From sequence record OZ035807.1: a stretch of DNA of 44,534 nt; one strand, written 5' to 3'. Under the pieces are notes generated by a model. That model searched no databases and was not told the DNA's origin. It saw only the letters and a list, made by a program, of their open reading frames with translations. Position numbers and translations under genes: made by a program. Source of the stretch: Vectrevirus LI10P3. This document shows positions 11,923-28,540 of this stretch, piece after piece (position 1 is the stretch's first letter; each line of letters opens with the position of its first letter).

Positions 11923-14550
11923 ATGCAAGACTTACACGCTATTCAACTTCAACTTGAAGAAGAAATGTTTAACGGCGGTATCCGTCGCTTTGAAGCGGAC
12001 CAACAGCGCCAGATTGCATCCGGTAATGAATCAGACACGGCATGGAATCGCCGCTTATTGTCCGAGTTAATTGCGCCAATGGCTGAAGGTATTCAGGCAT
12101 ACAAGGAAGAGTATGAAGGCAAGCGCGGTCGTGCACCACGTGCATTGGCTTTCATTAACTGCGTAGAAAATGAAGTGGCAGCGTATATCACGATGAAGAT
12201 CGTAATGGATATGCTTAACACTGATGTAACCTTGCAAGCTATCGCTATGAATGTAGCTGACCGCATCGAAGACCAAGTGCGCTTCAGTAAACTAGAAGGC
12301 CATGCAGCTAAATATTTTGAGAAGGTCAAGAAGTCACTTAAGGCAAGTAAGACTAAATCATATCGCCATGCGCACAACGTAGCGGTCGTGGCTGAGAAGT
12401 CAGTAGCTGACCGTGACGCTGATTTCTCCCGCTGGGAGGCATGGCCTAAAGACACCTTGCTGCAAATTGGGATGACCTTGCTTGAAATCTTAGAGAATAG
12501 CGTATTCTTCAACGGGCAACCTGTCTTCCTCCGCACCTTGCGCACTAATGGCGGCAAACATGGTGTTTACTACCTACAGACTAGTGAACACGTAGGTGAG
12601 TGGATAACTGCATTTAAAGAACATGTAGCGCAACTTAGTCCAGCCTATGCACCTTGCGTTATTCCTCCGCGTCCGTGGGTATCACCCTTTAACGGTGGGT
12701 TTCATACTGAGAAAGTAGCAAGCCGTATTCGTCTGGTAAAAGGCAATCGTGAGCACGTCCGCAAGCTGACCAAAAAGCAAATGCCAGCGGTTTACAAGGC
12801 TGTTAACGCTTTGCAGGCGACTAAGTGGCAGGTTAATAAAGAGGTTTTACAGGTTGTGGAGGACGTTATACGTCTAGACCTCGGCTATGGTGTACCTTCC
12901 TTTAAACCACTCATCGACCGTGAGAACAAGCCAGCTAATCCGGTGCCGTTAGAGTTCCAGCACCTGCGAGGCCGTGAACTGAAAGAAATGCTTACGCCGG
13001 AACAATGGCAAGCCTTTATCAACTGGAAAGGTGAATGTACTAAGCTGTACACCGCTGAAACTAAGCGCGGAAGCAAATCGGCGGCAACCGTTCGCATGGT
13101 TGGTCAGGCCCGTAAATATAGCCAGTTCGACGCAATCTACTTCGTGTATGCACTGGACAGCCGCAGCCGTGTATACGCGCAATCTAGCACACTCTCACCG
13201 CAATCAAATGACTTGGGCAAGGCCTTGCTCCGTTTTACCGAAGGGCAGCGTCTTGATAGCGCTGAGGCGCTTAAGTGGTTTTTGGTGAACGGGGCTAATA
13301 ACTGGGGTTGGGATAAGAAAACTTTTGACGTGCGCACTGCTAACGTGCTGGATAGTGAATTTCAAGACATGTGCCGCGACATTGCAGCGGATCCGCTGAC
13401 CTTCACTCAATGGGTAAATGCCGACTCCCCTTACGGCTTCCTTGCATGGTGCTTTGAATATGCGCGTTATCTGGATGCACTGGATGAAGGCACGCAAGAC
13501 CAATTCATGACGCACCTCCCAGTCCATCAAGATGGTAGTTGTTCTGGTATCCAGCACTACAGTGCTATGCTACGCGATGCAGTAGGTGCGAAAGCAGTAA
13601 ACCTTAAGCCCTCTGACTCTCCTCAAGATATTTATGGTGCCGTTGCGCAGGTAGTAATTCAGAAGAATTATGCATACATGAATGCAGAGGATGCGGAAAC
13701 CTTCACTTCTGGCAGCGTGACTTTAACAGGTGCGGAGCTGCGTAGTATGGCTAGTGCGTGGGATATGATAGGAATCACTCGCGGCCTGACCAAAAAGCCC
13801 GTAATGACACTACCTTATGGCAGCACACGTCTAACCTGCCGTGAGTCAGTGATTGATTATATCGTTGATTTAGAAGAAAAAGAGGCCCAACGGGCTATTG
13901 CGGAAGGGCGTACCGCCAATCCTGTACACCCTTTTGATAATGACCGTAAGGACAGCCTGACACCTAGCGCAGCTTATAACTATATGACAGCTTTAATCTG
14001 GCCTTCTATTTCGGAAGTGGTTAAAGCTCCTATAGTGGCAATGAAAATGATTCGTCAGCTTGCACGTTTCGCAGCTAAAAGGAATGAAGGCTTAGAGTAC
14101 ACCTTGCCTACTGGCTTCATCTTGCAACAAAAGATAATGGCGACAGATATGCTCCGCGTATCTACTTGCTTGATGGGAGAAATCAAGATGAGTCTACAGA
14201 TTGAAACGGACGTAGTGGATGAAACGGCTATGATGGGCGCTGCTGCCCCTAACTTTGTGCACGGTCATGATGCCAGTCACCTTATCTTAACGGTCTGCGA
14301 CCTTGTTGATAAAGGGATTACATCTATCGCAGTAATTCATGATTCTTTTGGCACTCATGCAGGTCGCACCGCAGACCTACGTGATAGTCTAAGGGCAGAA
14401 ATGGTGAAGATGTATCAAGGCCGTAATGCCCTGCAAAGCCTGTTAGATGAGCATGAAGAACGCTGGTTAGTAGACACCGGAATCCAAGTGCCAGAGCAAG
14501 GAGAGTTTGACCTTAACGAAATCTTAGTATCTGACTATTGCTTCGCATAA
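11923..14550 (+). CDS. single-subunit DNA-dependent RNA polymerase (SP6-type)
   Basis: 875 aa; N-terminus [30 protein letters not shown] and motifs [34 protein letters not shown] match the SP6 RNAP family as I recall it; C-terminal ...DYCFA. Confidence 0.95.
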
Positions 14551-15006: not shown

Positions 15007-16995
15007 ATGGCTATTATTCAGAATGTACCGTGTCCTGCTTGCCAAAAGAATGGACATGATATTACTGGCAACCATCTTATGATATTTGAGGATGGCGCTG
15101 GTTACTGTAACCGTGGTCACTTCCATGATAATGGGAAGCCTTATTACCATAAGCCAGAGGGTGGCATCGAGATAACCGAGTTACCTATTACTGGCAATAT
15201 CAAATATACACCTTCTCAATTCAAAGAAATGGAGAAGGAAGGGAAGATAAGCGACCCTAAGCTACGCGCCATCGCTCTTGGTGGTATGCGTATGAAAGAC
15301 CGTTGGGAGGTCATGAATGAGCAAGAAAGGGCAGACCAAGAAGCAGAGTGGAAACTTGATGTTGAATGGTTCCTCACGCTTAAGCGTAAGAACCTTGTAT
15401 CCCGTCACATTCGAGGTGACATCGCAGCAATGTACGATGTGCGCGTTGGACACGATGAAGAGGGAAGAGTCAACCGTCACTATTATCCACGATATGAAAA
15501 GGGTGTGCTTGTTGGGGCAAAATGCCGGACGTTGCCGAAGGATTTTAAGTTCGGACACCTAGGTAAACTCTTTGGTATGCAAGATCTTTTCGGTATGAAC
15601 ACTTTGTCTCACGTGTTAGACAAGGGGAGACGAAAGGATTGCTTGCTTATTGTAGGCGGTGAACTTGATGCACTAGCAGCGCAGCAGATGCTCCTTGATT
15701 CTGCCAAGGGTACTAAGTGGGAAGGCCAGCCATACCATGTATGGTCTGTCAACAAAGGCGAGTCTTGTCTTGAAGAGATAGTGCAAAACCGTGAGCATAT
15801 CGCCCAATTCAAGAAGATTATATGGGGTTTTGATGGAGATGAGGTAGGGCAGAAGCAGAATCAGCAAGCGGCTCGCCTGTTTCCTGGCAAATCCTATATC
15901 CTTGAATACCCCTCTGGTTGCAAAGATGCTAACAAGGCATTGATGGCTGGCAAGGCCAAAGAGTTTGTTGATGCATGGTTTAATGCCAAGTCATCTGATG
16001 AAGTCTTTGGTAGCCAGATTAAATCTATCGCCTCTCAAAGGGATAAGCTCAAGGCTGCACGTCCAGAGCAAGGACTATCATGGCCTTGGCCTAAGCTGAA
16101 CAAGGTAACGCTAGGTATTCGTAAGAACCAACTTATCATTGTAGGCGCAGGCTCTGGTGTAGGTAAGACTGAGTTCCTTCGTGAAGTAGTTAAGCACCTC
16201 ATTGAAGAACACGGTGAATCTGTAGGCATCATTTCTACAGAAGACCCGATGGTCAAGGTGTCCCGTGCTTTTATCGGCAAGTGGGTTGATAAGCGTATTG
16301 AGTTACCGCCAACCAACGACCCGAAAGAAGATGGATACCGTGAGGTGTTCGACTACACCGAGGAAGAGGCTAACGCCGCCATTGATTATGTAGCTGATAC
16401 AGGTAAGCTGTTTGTAGCTGACCTAGAGGGTGACTATTCGATGGAAAAGGTAGAGCAAACTTGCCTAGAGTTTGAGGCTATGGGCATTTCTAATATCATC
16501 ATTGATAACTTAACGGGGATTAAATTAGATGAGCGTGCTTTTGGTGGGAAGGTTGGTGCACTTGATGAATGCGTCAAGCGGATTGGTACTATCAAAGACC
16601 GACACCCGGTTACTATATTCCTTGTATCACACCTTACACGTCCTCCGGCAAACCGTACCCAACACGAAGAAGGTGGCGAAGTTATCCTTTCTGACTTCCG
16701 AGGCTCAGGCGCTATCGGATTCTGGGCATCTTACGCCTTGGGGATTGAGCGTAATACAAGAGCTGAAACGCTTGACGAAAGGACTACCACGTACATCTCA
16801 TGTGTCAAAGACCGCGACCAAGGTATCTACACTGGAACCAAGGTCATGCTTAAGGGTGACATTCAAACCGGACGTTTAATGGAACCACAAGCCCGTACTA
16901 AGTCATTTGATACAGGTGAAGCAAGGCAACAAGAAGTGCCGGATTTACCGGACACTATAGAAGAGACAACCTTTGACGATGAACAGGAGTTTTAA
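15007..16995 (+). CDS. DNA primase/helicase (T7 gp4-like)
   Basis: 662 aa; N-terminal zinc ribbon CPACQ...C..GH; Walker A GAGSGVGKTEF; DnaB-like C-terminal half. Confidence 0.9.
   Translation: MAIIQNVPCPACQKNGHDITGNHLMIFEDGAGYCNRGHFHDNGKPYYHKPEGGIEITELPITGNIKYTPSQFKEMEKEGKISDPKLRAIALGGMRMKDRWEVMNEQERADQEAEWKLDVEWFLTLKRKNLVSRHIRGDIAAMYDVRVGHDEEGRVNRHYYPRYEKGVLVGAKCRTLPKDFKFGHLGKLFGMQDLFGMNTLSHVLDKGRRKDCLLIVGGELDALAAQQMLLDSAKGTKWEGQPYHVWSVNKGESCLEEIVQNREHIAQFKKIIWGFDGDEVGQKQNQQAARLFPGKSYILEYPSGCKDANKALMAGKAKEFVDAWFNAKSSDEVFGSQIKSIASQRDKLKAARPEQGLSWPWPKLNKVTLGIRKNQLIIVGAGSGVGKTEFLREVVKHLIEEHGESVGIISTEDPMVKVSRAFIGKWVDKRIELPPTNDPKEDGYREVFDYTEEEANAAIDYVADTGKLFVADLEGDYSMEKVEQTCLEFEAMGISNIIIDNLTGIKLDERAFGGKVGALDECVKRIGTIKDRHPVTIFLVSHLTRPPANRTQHEEGGEVILSDFRGSGAIGFWASYALGIERNTRAETLDERTTTYISCVKDRDQGIYTGTKVMLKGDIQTGRLMEPQARTKSFDTGEARQQEVPDLPDTIEETTFDDEQEF
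16943..16965 (+). promoter_or_regulatory. phage RNAP promoter (inside 3' end of helicase gene)
   Basis: ATTTACCGGACACTATAGAAGAG. Confidence 0.6.
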
Positions 16996-18472: not shown

Positions 18473-18677
18473 ATTAAGCAAGGTTTGCTCTTGCGGTAAA
18501 GGTTATCGCAGTCGTATTGATGGTAAGTGTGGGCATTGCAGGTCTAAGAAAGAGGCTGCTTTGTTTGATAAGTACCACAATGAATTAGCATATAACTATC
18601 CTCATCTAACACCTAATTCTTTATTAGGACTTGGTTATAGGGTTAAATACTTTGGAGCAATCTATGAAATCAATTGA
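18459..18677 (+). CDS. hypothetical zinc-ribbon protein
   Basis: 72 aa with CSCGKGYRSRIDGKCGHC motif; overlaps DNA polymerase start. Confidence 0.4.
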   Translation: MKTIKLSKVCSCGKGYRSRIDGKCGHCRSKKEAALFDKYHNELAYNYPHLTPNSLLGLGYRVKYFGAIYEIN

Positions 18678-21210
18678 TTGGAAGAAGGAGGCAGAAGGTC
18701 GTATCCTCGTGATGGATGCGGAAGCTAAAGGACTCCTTGACGCTATCCGATATGGACACCGTGAAGATGTGCATATCATTTGCTGCATGGATTTGCTTAC
18801 TACCGAGGAGTTTCTCTTCTTTGACCCGTATGAGATGCGTGACCCTGAAGCAAGAGAACGCCTGAAGGAATGGGAAGGTCATCAAGACGGAACCTTGGTT
18901 GATGGTGTTAACTTCCTGAAGCATTGTGAAGCTATTGTGTCACAGAACTTCCTAGGGTATGACGGACTTCTCTTTGAGAAAGCATTCCCTGATATTTGGA
19001 AAGGCTTTAACTATACCGAGAAGCGCGGTAAGGGCAGACTCCGTGCTGACCTGTGTCCGGTGCGAGTCATGGATACGCTGGTGATGAGTCGCCTGTTAAA
19101 CCCTGATAGACGCCTTCCTCCGCAAGCATATGCCAAAGGTATGGGTAACGTCGCCCCTCACTCAATTGAGGCGCACGGCATCCGTATAGGCCGCTATAAA
19201 CCGGAGAACGAGGACTGGTCTAAACTAACTGACCACATGGTTCACCGTGTACGTGAGGACGTGGCGATTGGTCGTGACTTGTTCCTCTGGCTCTTTAACG
19301 GGGAATGGATGGAGCACAAACGCCGTGGCGTGAATAAACGCACTGGCCTAGGTATTGAGACAGCCTTCCACATGGAGTCCATTGTGGCGCTGGAGATGAG
19401 CCGTCAGGCAGAGCGTGGATTCCGTCTGGATATTGACAAAGCACTAGCGCGATGCGAAGAACTGGACGCTAAGATTGATGAGACAGTCGCAGCGTTCCGC
19501 CCTCACATGCCTATGCGTATCAAGTCTAAACCTTTTAAACCGGAAGAAAAGAATGAAGTATGCCAACGCGCAAATGAGTATGGAGCTAGCAACAATATAC
19601 CTACTGTCCTTGACCCCTCACACTTTCTTCATGCCGAGAGACGAGGAGATCGCAAGACAGTATGGAGTGTCACTACTAAGTCTGGTGATTGGTCGGCTAG
19701 TGTCAAGAAAGACTTTCCTCACCTTAGAGGAAACCGTAATGACACGCCAAGCATCAAGTGGATTGGCGCTTACTCGCCTGTTACTTTCGAAGAGATTCCC
19801 TTGGGTAACAGGGATACAGTTAAGCAAGTGCTCTATGAGTATGGATGGAAAGGTGTTGAATTTAACGATACCGAGCAAGCTCATCTCGATGAGCACGGAG
19901 TGTTACCAAAACCTTGGAGTGGTAAGATAAATGAAAAGTCCCTCACTTTATGGCAAGAAAGAGCCGCACGTGAAGGTAAAACAGTCCCTGATTGGTGCTT
20001 GGGTATCGCTGCATGGTACATACTCGTATCCCGTCGTGGTCAGATACTCAACCGTGGTGACGTTGAAGCCTTCAACGAGAAGGGAACGTGGCCCTCGCAG
20101 GCTGGTGTACGAAAGTGTCGCGGCCTTGTACCTGTAGCATTCAACAAGGAGCTAGGAATCAATGCGCAGCAATACTACGAGAGGTACGGATGTTGGCCTA
20201 CGTCTGACAAAGATGACGGAGAGTGGCGTGTTCCAGCTGTTGCTATTAGTATTGGCACTTCTACGTTCCGTATGCGTCATCGTAACGTGGTTAATATTCC
20301 TGCCCGTGGCTTGTATCCTTTACGTGATTTATTCATAGCAGGGAAAGGCAAGCTAATCCTTGGTTGTGACGGTGCAGGTCTTGAACTGCGTGTCCTGTCT
20401 CACTTCATGAATGACCCTGAGTACCAAGAGATTGTACTGCACGGTGATATTCATACGCATAACCAGATGAAGGCTGGTCTTCCTAAGCGTGATATGGCGA
20501 AGACGTTTATATACGCCTTCCTCTATGGTTCTGGTATAGCCAACCTTGCAGCAGTCTGCGGTGTTACTGAGGAAGAAATGAAGGAAGTTGTGGCAAGATT
20601 CGAGATTGAACTACCGTCTCTTGCACGTCTTCGTGAGAATGTTATCGCACAAGGTAACAAGTTTGGCTACCTGCAAGCACCTGATGGGCATTGGGGTCGC
20701 ATCCGCATGTCTGGTGGTGAACTTAAAGAGCACACGATGCTTAACGTATTACTCCAGATGACTGGCTCTTTGTGTATGAAATATGCATTAGTCAAGGCAT
20801 TTGCAGTAATGCGCAAGGAAGGTGTAGCTTTGGATGCTATGGGAAATCCTTGTGGTGTGGCTAACGTGCATGATGAAATCCAGATGGAAGTTCCTGAAGA
20901 GGAGGTCTTGTATCTTAACTACGACCTACCTTTCACCTTAGATGGGTTCGAAACAGAGAAGGCTGCTGTGAAAGCAGTTTTCGATGCAGAGGAGAAACGT
21001 GTTCATGTGGATTCTGAAGGACGTATGTGGTCTGCTGCAAACCTCGTTAGCGTTGATGCTGATGCTGGTGTATTGCATTGCCAGCGCCGTTATCACCGTG
21101 CAGGTCATATCATTGCCGACGCCATGACTTGGGCAGGGCAGTATCTGAAGATGCGTTGCCCGATGGCAGGAGAATATAAGATTGGCGCAAGCTGGAAGGA
21201 AACACACTGA
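18664..21210 (+). CDS. DNA polymerase, family A (T7 gp5 / SP6-type)
   Basis: 848 aa from ATG 18664 (GGAGCAA RBS); exo motif VMDAEAKGL; pol motifs DGAGLELR, KTFIYAFLYGSG, VHDE. Confidence 0.9.
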   Translation: MKSIDWKKEAEGRILVMDAEAKGLLDAIRYGHREDVHIICCMDLLTTEEFLFFDPYEMRDPEARERLKEWEGHQDGTLVDGVNFLKHCEAIVSQNFLGYDGLLFEKAFPDIWKGFNYTEKRGKGRLRADLCPVRVMDTLVMSRLLNPDRRLPPQAYAKGMGNVAPHSIEAHGIRIGRYKPENEDWSKLTDHMVHRVREDVAIGRDLFLWLFNGEWMEHKRRGVNKRTGLGIETAFHMESIVALEMSRQAERGFRLDIDKALARCEELDAKIDETVAAFRPHMPMRIKSKPFKPEEKNEVCQRANEYGASNNIPTVLDPSHFLHAERRGDRKTVWSVTTKSGDWSASVKKDFPHLRGNRNDTPSIKWIGAYSPVTFEEIPLGNRDTVKQVLYEYGWKGVEFNDTEQAHLDEHGVLPKPWSGKINEKSLTLWQERAAREGKTVPDWCLGIAAWYILVSRRGQILNRGDVEAFNEKGTWPSQAGVRKCRGLVPVAFNKELGINAQQYYERYGCWPTSDKDDGEWRVPAVAISIGTSTFRMRHRNVVNIPARGLYPLRDLFIAGKGKLILGCDGAGLELRVLSHFMNDPEYQEIVLHGDIHTHNQMKAGLPKRDMAKTFIYAFLYGSGIANLAAVCGVTEEEMKEVVARFEIELPSLARLRENVIAQGNKFGYLQAPDGHWGRIRMSGGELKEHTMLNVLLQMTGSLCMKYALVKAFAVMRKEGVALDAMGNPCGVANVHDEIQMEVPEEEVLYLNYDLPFTLDGFETEKAAVKAVFDAEEKRVHVDSEGRMWSAANLVSVDADAGVLHCQRRYHRAGHIIADAMTWAGQYLKMRCPMAGEYKIGASWKETH

Positions 21211-21579: not shown

Positions 21580-21957
21580 ATGTCTATGGTAACTACTCTG
21601 GTATTTGTAGCTCAATACTTTCGTGGTCTGGCTAATAAGTTCAAGTCCAAGGCTATCAAAGCTATTGAGTCTCGCATCGAGGCAGTACAGGCAGAGCAAG
21701 TTAAAGTTGAAGAACATCGTAGTTCTAAAATGATTGACTGCCATAACCGCTACTATGCATCTCGTGATGACCTTAATGCACGCCAAGTCAAAGAGGTTGA
21801 AGAGATGCTGGCACGTCACCAGCAAGAGCGCGACAGTCTGAAAGCTGAATTTGAAGAGAACAAGGCATCCATCGCCCTTGTACATCAAGCCGCATCTGAC
21901 AGCCTGAAGAAAGAGATTGTTATGCTTGAAATTGAGTTAGACAACCTGACCAAATAA
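21580..21957 (+). CDS. hypothetical coiled-coil protein
   Basis: 125 aa, RBS ATAGGAGA; heptad-like K/E-rich sequence. Confidence 0.55.
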   Translation: MSMVTTLVFVAQYFRGLANKFKSKAIKAIESRIEAVQAEQVKVEEHRSSKMIDCHNRYYASRDDLNARQVKEVEEMLARHQQERDSLKAEFEENKASIALVHQAASDSLKKEIVMLEIELDNLTK

Positions 21958-21979
21958 TTACTGGACACTATAGAACAAT
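21956..21979 (+). promoter_or_regulatory. phage RNAP promoter
   Basis: AATTACTGGACACTATAGAACAAT. Confidence 0.6.
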
Positions 21980-22119
21980 AGGTCGGCTTAGTTCGGCCTA
22001 TGATTGTAAAGTGTTGAACCTTATTGTGCATCTTGCACAACCCGATGCTATATCGGGCTTTCTAGTGAGTACATGCTTGTGCTCAGTACAAAGCTAACTG
22101 ACAATAGGAGACTAAATAA

Positions 22120-22926
22120 ATGGCACGTGGTGATTTTGATTTTGGTGCTCAGGTTACTAAGGCTGAAGGTAAAGTATTTAAGAACCCTGAAGTTGGTGAT
22201 CATGAAGCAGTAATCTCTGGCATCATTCATGTTGGTTCCTTCCAAGATATCTTTAAGAAAGGTAATACCACTGAAGTTAAGAAGCCAGCAAACTTTGTTC
22301 TTGTTAAGATTGTCCTGATGGGCGACGATGATAAGAACGAAGATGACTCTCGCATGGAACAATGGATGGCTGTGCCTCTGAAGTCTGGTGATAAGGCAAC
22401 ACTAACTAAGTTCCTGAATGCAGTTGACCCTAAAGAGTTGCTGGGTGGCTTCGATGATTTTATCGGTGAATGTCTGACTGCAACTATGGTTGGCTCTGGC
22501 GACAAGAATGATGATGGTACTTTCAAGTATGTTAACTGGAAAGGCTTTGGCGGTATGCCTGATAAGTTGAAGAAGCTTGTACTGGCTCAGGTAGAAGAGG
22601 AAGGTCTGTCTATGACAGGTCATATCACCTTCGACAAGCTGACCAAAGAAATCCTTGATGACATCCCAGCTAACTTGGTGCGTCAATACTTCCTTAATGA
22701 AACACCTCGTGGTAAGAACCTGTCTGTTGCTGGTTCTCACGTAGAAGCAATCATTAAAGCTGCTCGTGAAGAAGACCCAGAGTGGAAGAAAGCCAAGAAG
22801 AAAGATGACGAGGATGCTACTCCAGCTAATCGTAAATCTCTGGATACTGGTGAGTCTGTTCCACAGGAAGTACCTGAAGCAGAAGATACTCCTGCACCGG
22901 AGATGGATGAGGACGCGGAATATTAA
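22120..22926 (+). CDS. hypothetical protein with acidic C-terminal tail; possible ssDNA-binding protein
   Basis: 268 aa, codon usage of a highly expressed gene, C-terminus ...PEMDEDAEY; SSB call is by analogy to T7 gp2.5 only, no sequence match verified. Confidence 0.4.
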   Translation: MARGDFDFGAQVTKAEGKVFKNPEVGDHEAVISGIIHVGSFQDIFKKGNTTEVKKPANFVLVKIVLMGDDDKNEDDSRMEQWMAVPLKSGDKATLTKFLNAVDPKELLGGFDDFIGECLTATMVGSGDKNDDGTFKYVNWKGFGGMPDKLKKLVLAQVEEEGLSMTGHITFDKLTKEILDDIPANLVRQYFLNETPRGKNLSVAGSHVEAIIKAAREEDPEWKKAKKKDDEDATPANRKSLDTGESVPQEVPEAEDTPAPEMDEDAEY

Positions 22927-23186: not shown

Positions 23187-23210
23187 ATTTACTGGACACT
23201 ATAGAAGAGA
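23187..23210 (+). promoter_or_regulatory. phage RNAP promoter
   Basis: TATTTACTGGACACTATAGAAGAG, preceded by the GTCTCACATGTGAGAC palindrome. Confidence 0.7.
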
Positions 23211-23258: not shown

Positions 23259-23636
23259 ATGTTCAAGATTGAAACTATCGTAAACCGTGTTGTTAAAGGT
23301 GCTGCTCTGGTATCCGTTGAGTCTTTCATTATCGTCGATGAAGCTGATCAACTGGTAGCTGGTACTAAGGCTTATGATACTCGTGAAGAAGCTCAGGCTA
23401 AGATTGACAGCATGGGTAACTTCGCTGCGGGTCTGGAGTTCGCTCGTGCTTGCTTCCCTGAGCAGGCTGACAAAGCTCAGATTGGTAAGGCTAATATCGT
23501 AGCTGAATATCTGGATTGGATTGCTGCCGGTAAGCCGGTGAAAGAAGTTAAGTCTGCTGAAGAAGCTGAAGCTCAGGCAGTAGAAGAAGTAGCTGCACCG
23601 GTAGGTGCTCCGGTAAGCGAAGAAGAAGAGTTTTAA
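23259..23636 (+). CDS. highly acidic hypothetical protein (abundantly expressed)
   Basis: 125 aa, about 24 acidic vs 12 basic residues, C-terminus SEEEEF; strong RBS AAAGGAG; codon usage strongly biased to cgt/ctg/ggt/gct; own promoter and terminator. Confidence 0.7.
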   Translation: MFKIETIVNRVVKGAALVSVESFIIVDEADQLVAGTKAYDTREEAQAKIDSMGNFAAGLEFARACFPEQADKAQIGKANIVAEYLDWIAAGKPVKEVKSAEEAEAQAVEEVAAPVGAPVSEEEEF

Positions 23637-23700: not shown

Positions 23701-24006
23701 ATGCCGACTATTAAATCTCGTTTAGTAGCAGACTATGTGTATGGTCGTGACTTAAAGTTAATGCAAGATTACTTTAAAGTAATCATCCTGCTGGATGGAG
23801 AAGTGTTTCACACTAAAACATTCACCCTTCCTGAATTGTTTGATTTAGGTTATTGGGGTTATACATATCAGGCCATAGCAGACAAGGTGCTACTCAGTGT
23901 ATTAGAGGAGTGGCCTACATGCGACCAAACTTCGACTTCGGAGCTACAGTATCGGAAGACAATAACCTGTTGCTGTGGCCAACTGAAGGTAATAGAATCG
24001 CTTTAA
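23701..24006 (+). CDS. hypothetical protein
   Basis: 101 aa; 3' end overlaps the exonuclease gene by about 88 nt in another frame. Confidence 0.45.
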   Translation: MPTIKSRLVADYVYGRDLKLMQDYFKVIILLDGEVFHTKTFTLPELFDLGYWGYTYQAIADKVLLSVLEEWPTCDQTSTSELQYRKTITCCCGQLKVIESL

Positions 24007-24947
24007 TAGATGCTGACATGTTACCCTACATCGTAGGTTATACAATCAGTGACATGACTTATGTACGAGCCACAACTCGTGTTAAGTCAGGACAAGTCCC
24101 ATCAATCAAAGATACACCTGAGTGTAAGCAAGCGTGTGACCGTGTGAACTCCTTGCTCAACTCTTGGGTGTATGCAGCAGAGTGTGATGCAGCTAAGTTA
24201 TTCATGACGAAATCAGAAGCTAACTTCCGTGTTCGCCTAGCCTTCACCAAGCCTTATAAGGGTCAACGTAAGACCGAGAAGCCTCCGTTCTTCTATGAAT
24301 TGCGAGAGCATCTCTTAGAGGTTCATGGTGCAATCTTGGCAGATGGAGAAGAGGCTGATGACCTCATGAGCATTGCACAATGGGACAGCCACCGCCGCTT
24401 CCAGCAAGATACAGGTAACGAGTTCCCTATCGGTAGTCCAGAGCATAAAGCATTCTCTGATACTTGCATCGTTTCCTTAGATAAGGATTTGATGATTGTT
24501 CCCGGTTGGCATCTTCAGCCGGGTCAAGAGAAGAAATGGGTAGAGCCTATGGGTTGGCTTGAGCTACGCCGTAAGGCTAATGGTCAGGTTAAAGACCTTA
24601 AAGGTGCTGGCCTCATGTTTCATTATGCACAGATGATTATCGGTGATGATATTGATAACTATGCTGGCATACCTGGACGTGGTGCTAAATACGCCTATGA
24701 TCTTCTCAAAGATTGTAAGACAGAGAAAGAGTTGTACATGGCAGTGCTTGGTGCTTACAAGGCTAAGTTCGGACATGGACAAGTTAAGATTAAGAATTAC
24801 CGAGGTGGTTATCGTATCGGCAAGGCTTTTGACCTGATGCTCGAATGTGGTCGCCTAGCCCACATGGCAAGATTCAAAGGTGATATATGGCGAGCCGATA
24901 AGAACCCAATCTTGTGGGGAGATGATGCGAAATGGTTAGCAAATTAA
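23919..24947 (+). CDS. 5'-3' exonuclease (T7 gp6-like, FEN/PIN fold)
   Basis: ATG 23919 with GAGGAG RBS; acidic clusters LIDADMLPY, DGEEADDLM, VSLDKDLM typical of FEN-type nucleases; position after DNA polymerase. Confidence 0.75.
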   Translation: MRPNFDFGATVSEDNNLLLWPTEGNRIALIDADMLPYIVGYTISDMTYVRATTRVKSGQVPSIKDTPECKQACDRVNSLLNSWVYAAECDAAKLFMTKSEANFRVRLAFTKPYKGQRKTEKPPFFYELREHLLEVHGAILADGEEADDLMSIAQWDSHRRFQQDTGNEFPIGSPEHKAFSDTCIVSLDKDLMIVPGWHLQPGQEKKWVEPMGWLELRRKANGQVKDLKGAGLMFHYAQMIIGDDIDNYAGIPGRGAKYAYDLLKDCKTEKELYMAVLGAYKAKFGHGQVKIKNYRGGYRIGKAFDLMLECGRLAHMARFKGDIWRADKNPILWGDDAKWLAN

Positions 24948-25342
24948 AATCATCGGAGGTAGCAGCTTATAAGAGGGAATTGCTAGAGAAGCAAGGGTGG
25001 AAGTGCCCACTATGTGGCGGCAGTCTCAAGGCTGTTACTCCTATAAACCGTGTACTTGACCATGACCATGAGACAGGATTCTGCCGTGCTGTTGTATGCC
25101 GAGGCTGCAATGGTGCAGAAGGAAAGATTAAGGGTGTTATCTCTGGTTACGGTAAGGCTGGTAACAACCGTTACTTCCAGCTTCAATGGTTAGAGCGACT
25201 ATATGAATACTGGAAGTTACATAGTACGCCTCAGACAGATAAGTTATATCACAAACATCAAACGGAGGCAGAGAAGCGCGAGGCTAAGAACCGTAAGGCA
25301 CGCCTTGCTTATGCAAGAAAGAAGGAGGTTAAAGTTGGGTAA
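24932..25342 (+). CDS. endonuclease VII-type Holliday junction resolvase
   Basis: 136 aa; CPLCGG ... DHDHETGFCRAVVCRGCNGAEGK zinc/His-Me finger signature of T4 endo VII family. Confidence 0.75.
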   Translation: MVSKLKSSEVAAYKRELLEKQGWKCPLCGGSLKAVTPINRVLDHDHETGFCRAVVCRGCNGAEGKIKGVISGYGKAGNNRYFQLQWLERLYEYWKLHSTPQTDKLYHKHQTEAEKREAKNRKARLAYARKKEVKVG

Positions 25343-27121: not shown

Positions 27122-28065
27122 ACATCTTCCAATTCCTAGGTCTTCCAGAAGACCACCGCAATCATCCATTCATGCTGGTGAAGCATCGCGGTGAAGTTCC
27201 TGAGAAGAAACTTACTTTTCCATGTTATGCACAGGTGAAACGAGATGGAATATTCAGTGCTGTTGTGGTGCGTAATGATGGTGCTGTTGCCATCTTTGGT
27301 CGTACTGGTAAGAAGCTCGCAAATGTTGAATCCTTGGAAAAGACGTTTAGTGTATTTCCTGTCGGGTTGTATCTTGGTGAGTTGCAATCTATGGCTGTTG
27401 ATGTTTATCTTGAAGCTCTGTCAGGAGTGGTAAACCCTAATCGTACCGAGCCACTTGATTTCATAGGCCAGCAGATTAAAGACAACCTGTATATCGACTT
27501 CTTCGATATGTTAACCATTAAGGCATTCCATGATGGATTCACTGATGTTTCTTATCTCAAACGTTACGATGCTTTACATCGCCGCATCGGCGCTCATCTT
27601 AGCGGGTACAACGCTATCCTTCCTATTACTCCTTGCCATAATGAGCGAGAAGTTGAAGCGTTTGCGCAAGAGCAAATAGATGCAGGCCGAGAGGGTGCTG
27701 TGTTTAAACTTGACGTGGAGTATGAAAGTGGGCACAAGGGCTATCGTCAAACGAAGATCGTTCGTATGGTATCTTACGACCTCACCTGTATTGGGTGGGA
27801 GGAAGGAAAAGGTAAGTATAAAGGTAAAGTAGCTAATTTAATCTTTAAATGGAAAGGTGGTAAGTCCGTTAAGGCTATGCTGGGGCGTGGCTGGTCACAT
27901 GAGGATGCAGCACAGATGTATCACGATATTAAACACGGTGGCGAACTAAACGTCATTGGGAAAATCTTCGCTGTTAAGGCGTTACAGGAATCTAGTAAGG
28001 GAGTCCTGAGACTTCCCAAGGTTTCTGAACTTAGGTTTGATAAGGAAGTCCCTGATGTCTTCTAA
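27118..28065 (+). CDS. ATP-dependent DNA ligase
   Basis: 315 aa; adenylation motif KRDG (AQVKRDGIFSAVV); RBS GGAGGTG. Confidence 0.75.
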   Translation: MNIFQFLGLPEDHRNHPFMLVKHRGEVPEKKLTFPCYAQVKRDGIFSAVVVRNDGAVAIFGRTGKKLANVESLEKTFSVFPVGLYLGELQSMAVDVYLEALSGVVNPNRTEPLDFIGQQIKDNLYIDFFDMLTIKAFHDGFTDVSYLKRYDALHRRIGAHLSGYNAILPITPCHNEREVEAFAQEQIDAGREGAVFKLDVEYESGHKGYRQTKIVRMVSYDLTCIGWEEGKGKYKGKVANLIFKWKGGKSVKAMLGRGWSHEDAAQMYHDIKHGGELNVIGKIFAVKALQESSKGVLRLPKVSELRFDKEVPDVF

Positions 28066-28540
28066 TCCAAATTACCGAAAACCACCTCGTACACCGCCAA
28101 GACCACTTGCCTACTGTCCTTTTACTGGAAAGCTTTTCCGTAAGTTCAAAGATGGCTGGAGAGAAACAGGACTTAGCAGAAAGAGTGATGGATATTTACA
28201 GTGTAAAGTCGATGGTAAGACTGTAAGTGTTCATGTTTTAGCAATGAATATGATGGGTTATGACACTACCGGCTTTACAGTAGATCACATAAATCATATA
28301 CGCTGGGATAATAGGTTTATTAATCTACGTCTATTATCTCATAAAGATAATTGTTTAAATAGAGAGGCGATACATATAAGTAAGCTGCCGAGTGGTAACT
28401 ACAGAGCGCGATGTGGAAATGTTCATCTTGGCGTATTTGAGGATAAGTTACTTGCTCGTGGTGCTATCCTATGGTATCGCCATAGGAGATTTAATAATGT
28501 TAAATTCAATGAAGGCAACGCGTGCCGTAGAAGTAGCTGA
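28055..28540 (+). CDS. HNH homing endonuclease
   Basis: 161 aa from ATG 28055; motif VDHINHIRWDNRFINLRLLSHKDNCLN; overlaps ligase 3' end. Confidence 0.65.
   Translation: MSSNPNYRKPPRTPPRPLAYCPFTGKLFRKFKDGWRETGLSRKSDGYLQCKVDGKTVSVHVLAMNMMGYDTTGFTVDHINHIRWDNRFINLRLLSHKDNCLNREAIHISKLPSGNYRARCGNVHLGVFEDKLLARGAILWYRHRRFNNVKFNEGNACRRSS

Follow-up and report, generated by a model that had tools for sequence, protein, structure and literature searches.

We propose that the 268-aa protein encoded at positions 22120–22926 (+ strand) is the replicative single-stranded DNA-binding protein, or SSB, of this phage, and that it adopts a fold resembling those of the N4 SSB and the DUF669 proteins rather than that of T7 gp2.5, a reading that draws on sequence comparison and a predicted structure and to which we assign a probability of about 0.7. 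A function as SSB is supported by the OB-like fold of the model, the position of the gene in the replication module, the conserved acidic tail ending in Tyr or Phe, and the lack of any other recognisable SSB. The first-pass annotation had suggested an SSB of the gp2.5 type; the function it named is probably right as a prediction, but the family is wrong.

The window, by which we mean the whole 44.5 kb stretch of DNA analysed, is a complete or near-complete Vectrevirus genome (Autographiviridae, Molineuxvirinae; K1-5/K1E group, near SP6), and between positions 21000 and 24000 it is 98.2% identical to Escherichia phage VEc3. All of its long genes lie on the + strand, among them the RNA polymerase (11923–14550, +), the primase-helicase (15007–16995, +) and the family-A DNA polymerase (18631–21210, +; Pfam DNA_pol_A, E 5e-23). 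Several small genes separate the DNA polymerase from the 268-aa ORF, which is followed by a 72-aa ORF, a 125-aa acidic ORF (23259–23636, +), a 101-aa ORF, the 5′–3′ exonuclease (23853–24947, +), endonuclease VII (24932–25342, +) and then, in the order of the block, a phosphoesterase, a nucleotide kinase and a ligase. The candidate gene thus sits ∼0.9 kb downstream of the DNA polymerase and upstream of the exonuclease and endonuclease VII, in agreement with the position after the polymerase that had been claimed for it. Upstream of it, the ORF at 21580–21957 (125 aa) carries the RefSeq label ‘polysaccharide chain length determinant protein’, which we reject as it looks like a coiled-coil false match. 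A scan of 28 ORFs with Pfam and/or PHROGs, covering the early, middle and packaging regions and, in part, ORFs shorter than ∼70 aa, returned no second recognisable SSB in the window.

Sequence comparison indicates that the 268-aa ORF is a real, conserved gene and no chance ORF. It starts with ATG, runs for 268 codons and ends in …PAPEMDEDAEY, so that the reading frame and acidic C-terminus (…EMDEDAEY) described in the first pass are both present at 22120–22926 on the + strand. A word-indexed search found 47 homologues at E ≤ 1e-3 and an exhaustive search 94 cluster representatives; the product of K1-5 gene 16, its orthologue, is 98% identical and that of the SP6 orthologue ∼82%. The protein matches phrog_862, a PHROG without assigned function, at E 1.9e-60, as do all 83 of the relatives compared. 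Among the 60 listed of 215 phage records the gene is annotated as ‘hypothetical’ or not at all, bar one record that evidently mislabels it as an HNH endonuclease, and we found no SSB named for SP6, K1-5 or K1E in the literature.

The signals around the gene are those of a transcription unit with a promoter of its own. An SP6/K1-5-type phage RNA polymerase promoter, ATTACTGGACACTATAGAACAA, can be read at 21957–21978 (+), and its core TACTGGACACTATAG occupies 21959–21973; the motif has 14 matches in the window where 1.27 are expected by chance. RNA folding predicts a structured 5′ leader of four hairpins (21974–22105, +) that leaves unpaired the strong Shine-Dalgarno sequence AGGAG (22106–22110, +), which lies 9 nt before the ATG. 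The minimum free energy of this leader is –45.8 kcal/mol (z –3.36), and none of 200 shuffled sequences folded equally well; by analogy with T7, we infer that it may influence how stable the mRNA is or how RNase III processes it. The high-expression codon bias noted earlier is broadly borne out: at 0.619, the gene ranks fourth of 26 by its fraction of E. coli-preferred codons, below the major capsid protein (0.669) and above the scaffold protein (0.607); these fractions are approximate and indicative only.

An AlphaFold2 model built from 28 homologues (mean pLDDT 78.7, pTM 0.71) divides the protein into four parts. The N-terminal segment (aa 1–18; 22120–22173, +) is predicted to be disordered (pLDDT 35–40) and contains the invariant residues M1, F6, G9, A10 and G17. 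It is followed by an OB-like beta core (aa ∼19–147; 22174–22560, +; pLDDT 78–94) with strands at 26–47, 50–53, 57–66, 80–86, 118–129 and 135–144 and helices at 94–102 and 111–114, in which beta1–3, a helix and beta4–5 follow one another in the OB order of elements. A family-conserved, mildly basic (pI 8.2) helical domain (aa 148–228; 22561–22803, +) comes next, with helices modelled at 148–161, 176–181, 184–190 and 207–218 (pLDDT about 87–92), and the protein closes with a disordered acidic tail (aa 229–268; 22804–22923, +; pLDDT <50 for residues 229–253) that ends in …MDEDAEY. The OB core is itself acidic overall (pI 4.8), so charge by itself gives no clear indication of where DNA would bind.

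An OB fold, which the gp2.5-type suggestion had entailed, is therefore predicted, and the nearest folds in the PDB are those of PrgE, RPA, SSB and PriB. When the model was compared with the PDB by Foldseek, the best matches were free and ssDNA-bound PrgE of plasmid pCF10 (PDB 8S4S/8S4T; E 1e-4 and 4e-4, probability 1.0), followed by RPA–ssDNA complexes, bacterial SSBs and PriB. The TM-scores against these solved OB folds are low (0.26 over the query length, 0.47–0.49 over the target length), partly because the OB core makes up only about half of the query. PrgE has an OB fold and binds ssDNA as beads-on-a-string monomers joined by their N-terminal tail; in the 268-aa protein the N-terminal peptide is invariant yet predicted to be disordered. 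PrgE differs, however, in being 144 aa long, lacking a helical domain, being plasmid-encoded and binding dsDNA as well as it binds ssDNA, and the two share only 12% sequence identity with TM-scores of only 0.26/0.47. It is also dispensable for conjugation. Sequence searches are silent at this distance: no Pfam family, DUF669 included, matches the 268-aa protein (E ≤ 0.1) or its 83 relatives (E ≤ 5), and phmmer and hmmsearch comparisons of the protein and its family with PDB sequences gave chance matches only.

If the 268-aa protein belonged to the gp2.5 family, as was first suggested, family-level comparison should be expected to link the two, and HMM, profile and structure-neighbour comparisons with T7 gp2.5 were all negative, leaving the acidic tail as the one feature of that claim that was found. 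Neither Pfam SBB_T7 (PF21265) nor Enc34_ssDNA-bd (PF10991, formerly DUF2815) matches the 268-aa protein or any of 83 relatives, whereas T7 gp2.5 itself, run as a positive control, scores 1.1e-89 on SBB_T7. Aligning the two families with hhalign gave a null result (E 0.48 over 13 columns), as did a 121-sequence gp2.5 alignment (E 0.18 over 14 columns), and the comparison with the single T7 gp2.5 sequence was not significant. Foldseek agrees: other OB-fold SSBs appear among the top 50 neighbours in the PDB and BFVD searches, but gp2.5 (PDB 1JE5) in neither list. What the proteins do have in common is a comparable size (268 versus 232 aa), an origin in an autographivirus with the same kind of replisome (a family-A polymerase and a fused primase-helicase), the same proposed role, a dedicated phage promoter (phi2.5 in T7) and an acidic tail with a final aromatic residue (…DEDGDF in gp2.5). 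The genes nevertheless occupy different positions, following the DNA polymerase here but preceding the genes for the endonuclease and the amidase in T7, and gp2.5 has no extra helical domain. We therefore consider it very improbable that the protein is a divergent member of the gp2.5/DUF2815 family.

The sequence signal that does emerge leads to the N4 SSB. An hhalign comparison of the 268-aa family (83 representatives) with the N4 SSB family aligned 101 core columns (E 1.1e-3, probability 20%), and larger alignments gave a score of 31.6 (P 7e-4), against 12.2 for a reversed N4 alignment and at most 20.7 for 100 block shuffles, none of which reached 31.6. These scores point, weakly, to a profile similarity that is real and non-random, for which the hhalign probability is only 20–26%. 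The aligned region is the OB-like core, which is also the region aligned with Xp10 37L, and its beta4–beta5 stretch (…IG..v.v.v....dG..Y.N…) aligns in independent comparisons with the single N4 and phiAT3 sequences too. The hhalign runs of the family against single N4 SSB, HK620 SSB or phiAT3 ORF29 sequences were not significant; single DUF669-type sequences gave E-values of 0.013–0.36. The DUF669 side was represented by single sequences in these comparisons, and searches with HK620 SSB and phiAT3 ORF29 had yielded only relatives at least 85% identical.

The predicted structures tell a similar story. Of the top 50 BFVD neighbours of the N4 SSB model (pLDDT 84), 16 are also among the top 50 of the 268-aa model, an indirect link that runs through common neighbours. 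These shared neighbours include the DUF669-annotated proteins A0A6J5MBI5 and A0A6J5S462, one annotated SSB, and F2W640, which ranks second for the 268-aa model. The BFVD neighbours of the 268-aa model as a whole include many uncharacterised phage proteins, some labelled DUF669, one labelled SSB, and Xp10 37L, and Foldseek connects the model to DUF669-annotated viral proteins at E 5e-5 and 1.6e-4.

The N4 SSB (gp45, 265 aa) resembles the 268-aa protein in length and, in the models, in its arrangement of a disordered N-terminus with a conserved aromatic motif, a beta-rich OB-like core, a short helical region and a disordered C-terminus; its gene, too, lies in the replication module, and N4 likewise has no second recognisable SSB. 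It differs in that an HMM-level sequence match to the 268-aa protein is absent, its core is bigger, with extra strands at 150–187, and its C-terminus is Gly/Ala/Lys-rich and ends in …SLFGKK with no acidic tail. Its gene adjoins a Sak4-like gene, of which there is none in this window, and the protein also works as an activator of late promoters, a function that a phage encoding its own RNA polymerase does not evidently require.

The family in which we place the protein has been delineated in the literature. Kazlauskas et al. tied the experimentally characterised N4 SSB to DUF669 by HHsearch and put forward the view that DUF669 proteins are OB-fold SSBs that have diverged strongly, carry acidic tails and occur in viruses without other SSBs (PMC4889955), and in vitro work by Hutinet et al. 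showed the DUF669-type HK620 protein to be an SSB (PMC5928155). The Pfam DUF669 model (PF05037) does not match the 268-aa protein or its 83 relatives at E ≤ 5, although it detects phiAT3 ORF29, the positive control, at 1.6e-11. It also misses the N4 SSB, the HK620 SSB, Xp10 37L and Bolek p30, which indicates that this HMM spans only part of the superfamily. With phiAT3 ORF29 as the query, PDB sequences offered no connection from DUF669 to PrgE or any other solved structure. Besides the Foldseek link, the DUF669 SSBs (phiAT3 ORF29 and HK620 SSB, also named HkaK) resemble the 268-aa protein in their N-termini, by eye only (MAITMDYS / MSNVIFTY / MARGDFDFG), and the acidic tail of phiAT3 ORF29 likewise ends in an aromatic residue, Phe (…DDDLPF). 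By contrast, the 268-aa family adds a helical domain of ∼80 residues, and its gene lies between polymerase and exonuclease instead of adjoining sak4, as DUF669 genes typically do (PMC5928155).

A replication or recombination OB protein need not have generic coating of ssDNA as its main job, and the 268-aa protein might instead be a strand-annealing or recombination mediator, a PrgE-like former of filaments on dsDNA and ssDNA, or a regulator of the polymerase or of transcription. Precedents exist among its relatives and neighbours: PrgE, the nearest solved fold, does not discriminate between the two forms of DNA; DUF669 proteins have been described as distant homologues of annealing proteins (PMC9145550); and N4SSB, which is essential for N4 DNA replication, activates the host RNA polymerase at late promoters and has through its C-terminus a second role that is independent of DNA binding (PMC4496689). 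The helical domain at 148–228, to which no function is assigned, and the net acidic charge of the OB core would fit such a role as well. Set against this are signals of high expression such as a stoichiometric coating protein typically shows, the conservation of an SSB-type acidic tail and the finding that the window has no other recognisable SSB to do the coating. On balance we regard a main function other than coating as unlikely. The two kinds of role are not exclusive in any case, as T7 gp2.5 both coats and anneals.

For the replicative SSB that we favour, the C-terminal tail is one line of support. The last 40 residues contain 15 D/E against 2 K/R (pI 4.05). Among 28 aligned homologues, with identities as low as 33%, 26 have an acidic tail whose last residue is Y or F, and two end in …DFS. 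An acidic tail with an aromatic end is common to E. coli-type SSBs and some DUF669 SSBs, and so it is not diagnostic of gp2.5. The primase-helicase of this phage has a C-terminus of the same kind (…TFDDEQEF), just as the T7 helicase has a tail similar to that of gp2.5; in T7 the tails of gp4 and gp2.5 both bind the polymerase. The …DDEQEF end of the primase-helicase thus suggests a T7-style use of acidic tails in the replisome. As the N4 SSB has no acidic tail, this logic is taken from gp2.5 and E. coli SSB and not from the nearest family, and the tail appears to be a feature of the type of replisome rather than of the SSB fold.

A third tail of this kind raises the question of whether the 268-aa protein does something else and the real SSB is the acidic protein downstream, which the first-pass annotation had named as the alternative candidate. 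The 125-aa protein at 23259–23636 (+) is indeed real and acidic, but an SSB signal in Pfam or PHROGs is absent: it has no Pfam match and hits only phrog_4429, which has no assigned function. Its tail carries a terminal Phe (…SEEEEF) and is kept in the Tola homologue (39% identical; …PDETF), its preferred-codon fraction of 0.746 is the highest in the window, it has a promoter of its own at 23190, and it is conserved alongside the 268-aa gene, in 212 phage records, the two being distributed alike over the genera. Conservation, however, is limited to residues 1–91, which by eye read as a short beta segment and then helices, about half helical, and do not look like a five-stranded OB barrel, making an OB fold unlikely. 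Moreover, Xp10- and Bolek-type modules keep the large protein beside the exonuclease, with no homologue of the small protein listed between them. The chance that this protein is the SSB of the phage therefore seems to us slight in the extreme, and it is more interesting as a possible third tail-bearing partner in the replisome.

The large protein can be followed well beyond the SP6-like phages. Profile comparison with the 268-aa family gave a probability of 97.8% (E 1e-12) for Xp10 37L and of 99.6% (E 3e-24) for p30 of Aeromonas phage Bolek, where the alignment extends into the helical domain, through column 213; the authors of Bolek had listed p30 as ‘DUF669 domain containing protein’. At the level of sequence, Xp10-like and phiKMV-like phages unambiguously hold remote homologues of the family. 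The gene order is retained too: DNA polymerase, X, 5′–3′ exonuclease and endonuclease VII follow one another in Xp10, Bolek, Tola (p36) and two metagenomic contigs, and the phrog_862 slot between DNA polymerase and exonuclease occurs in SP6-, phiKMV- and Xp10-like phages. In one deposited record the phiKMV-type homologue is labelled ‘ssDNA binding protein’.

If the 268-aa protein is the replicative SSB, its dedicated phage promoter would provide for abundant synthesis, its OB core would coat the ssDNA of the lagging strand and of recombination intermediates, and its acidic tail with the terminal Tyr would, by analogy with gp2.5 and E. coli SSB, dock onto the phage DNA polymerase and/or the primase-helicase. 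A broader picture, which we put forward tentatively and think rather doubtful as a whole, is that the replisome of SP6/K1-5-like phages is T7-style, with acidic tails as its organising element, but uses an SSB scaffold unrelated to gp2.5. In such a model a DUF669/N4-like OB protein would have gained its aromatic-ended acidic tail independently of gp2.5, and the tails of the SSB, the primase-helicase (…DDEQEF) and the 125-aa protein (…SEEEEF) would be rivals for one set of basic sites on the polymerase. Cooperativity of the beads-on-a-string type, as in PrgE, would be brought about by the invariant, disordered N-terminal peptide FDFGA, and the 125-aa protein would be a previously unrecognised accessory factor of the replisome.

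K1-5, K1E, SP6 and related phages commonly serve as chassis for therapy and engineering and are the source of SP6 RNA polymerase. The assignment introduces no new mechanism, as members of the wider DUF669/N4 group had already, in 2016, been predicted to be SSBs, and biochemical work has shown this for N4 and HK620; its value lies in filling an annotation gap in a much-used group of phages, and it will not surprise a specialist. If true, it completes the replication set of primase-helicase, polymerase, SSB, exonuclease, endonuclease VII and ligase, and it would extend to the many homologues found in phages of the phiKMV-, Xp10- and Okabevirinae-like types (Xp10 37L is matched by 262 records). 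The two branches of the Autographiviridae would then share a tail logic while differing in SSB fold.

Outside its OB-like core, the 268-aa SSB candidate (predicted product of 22120-22926, + strand) carries two further conserved elements. The first is an N-terminal peptide, MARxxFDFGA (aa 1-18; 22120-22173, +), delineated from the alignment and the structure model, in which M1, F6, G9, A10 and G17 are invariant across the 28 aligned homologues, although the model predicts this segment to be disordered (pLDDT 35-40). By eye, it resembles the aromatic N-termini of three N4-SSB/DUF669-like phage proteins, N4 SSB (xxLFGNL), HK620 SSB (VIFTY) and phiAT3 ORF29 (TMDYS). In PrgE, the OB-fold protein of plasmid pCF10 and best solved structural neighbour, the N-terminal tail joins adjacent subunits on ssDNA. 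The second element, C-terminal to the OB core in the structure model, is a domain confidently predicted to be helical (aa 148-228; 22561-22803, +), which is mildly basic (pI 8.2), has conservation reaching as far as the remote homologue Bolek p30, and is without a counterpart in either T7 gp2.5 or PrgE.

RNA folding of the 5′ leader of the SSB candidate gene (21974-22105, +) yields four stable hairpins, with an MFE of -45.8 kcal/mol and a z of -3.36, and the Shine-Dalgarno sequence stays unpaired in the computed fold; the leader may serve as an mRNA-stabilising element or as a site of RNase III-type processing. Motif matching places copies of a recurrent phage promoter core (TAC[TC]GGACACTATAG, plus one variant) on the + strand at 124, 2661, 4329, 14644, 16946, 21496, 21959, 23190, 26340 and 31983, and a looser pattern matches 14 times versus 1.27 expected. 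Three of the copies (21496, 21959 and 23190) fall within the 1.7 kb surrounding the SSB candidate, and another lies directly upstream of the capsid gene.

RefSeq and PHROGs give a 125-aa ORF upstream of the SSB candidate (21580-21957, +; phrog_7450) the label 'polysaccharide chain length determinant protein', which looks like annotation carry-over because the ORF's Pfam matches are only weak and of coiled-coil type. Downstream of the candidate, a 101-aa ORF labelled 'DNA repair protein' (23701-24006, +; phrog_10319) extends into the longest exonuclease ORF (23853-24947), covering its 5′ end; in Escherichia phage VEc3 the annotated exonuclease start lies farther downstream. Elsewhere in the window, two HNH endonuclease ORFs probably encode homing enzymes; one (184-774, +) shares its first part with the tail end of the small terminase ORF (30-329) and its last part with the beginning of the large terminase ORF (722-2659), and the other (28037-28540, +) follows the ligase gene.

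Acidic C-termini recur in the replication block. The primase-helicase (15007-16995, +) ends in ...TIEETTFDDEQEF, an acidic tail whose last residue is Phe, as in T7 gp4, and such tails are therefore common to three replication-block proteins. The 125-aa protein downstream of the SSB candidate (23259-23636, +; phrog_4429 match) likewise has an acidic C-terminus (...SEEEEF), retained in its homologue from phage Tola (...PDETF), and contains a conserved GKAN[IV]VAEYLDW motif. Its gene is preceded by its own phage promoter (23190-23204, +) and ranks first in the window for preferred-codon fraction (0.746), and the protein and the SSB candidate are conserved together in 212 phage records. This small protein may act as a hitherto unrecognised accessory factor of the replisome.
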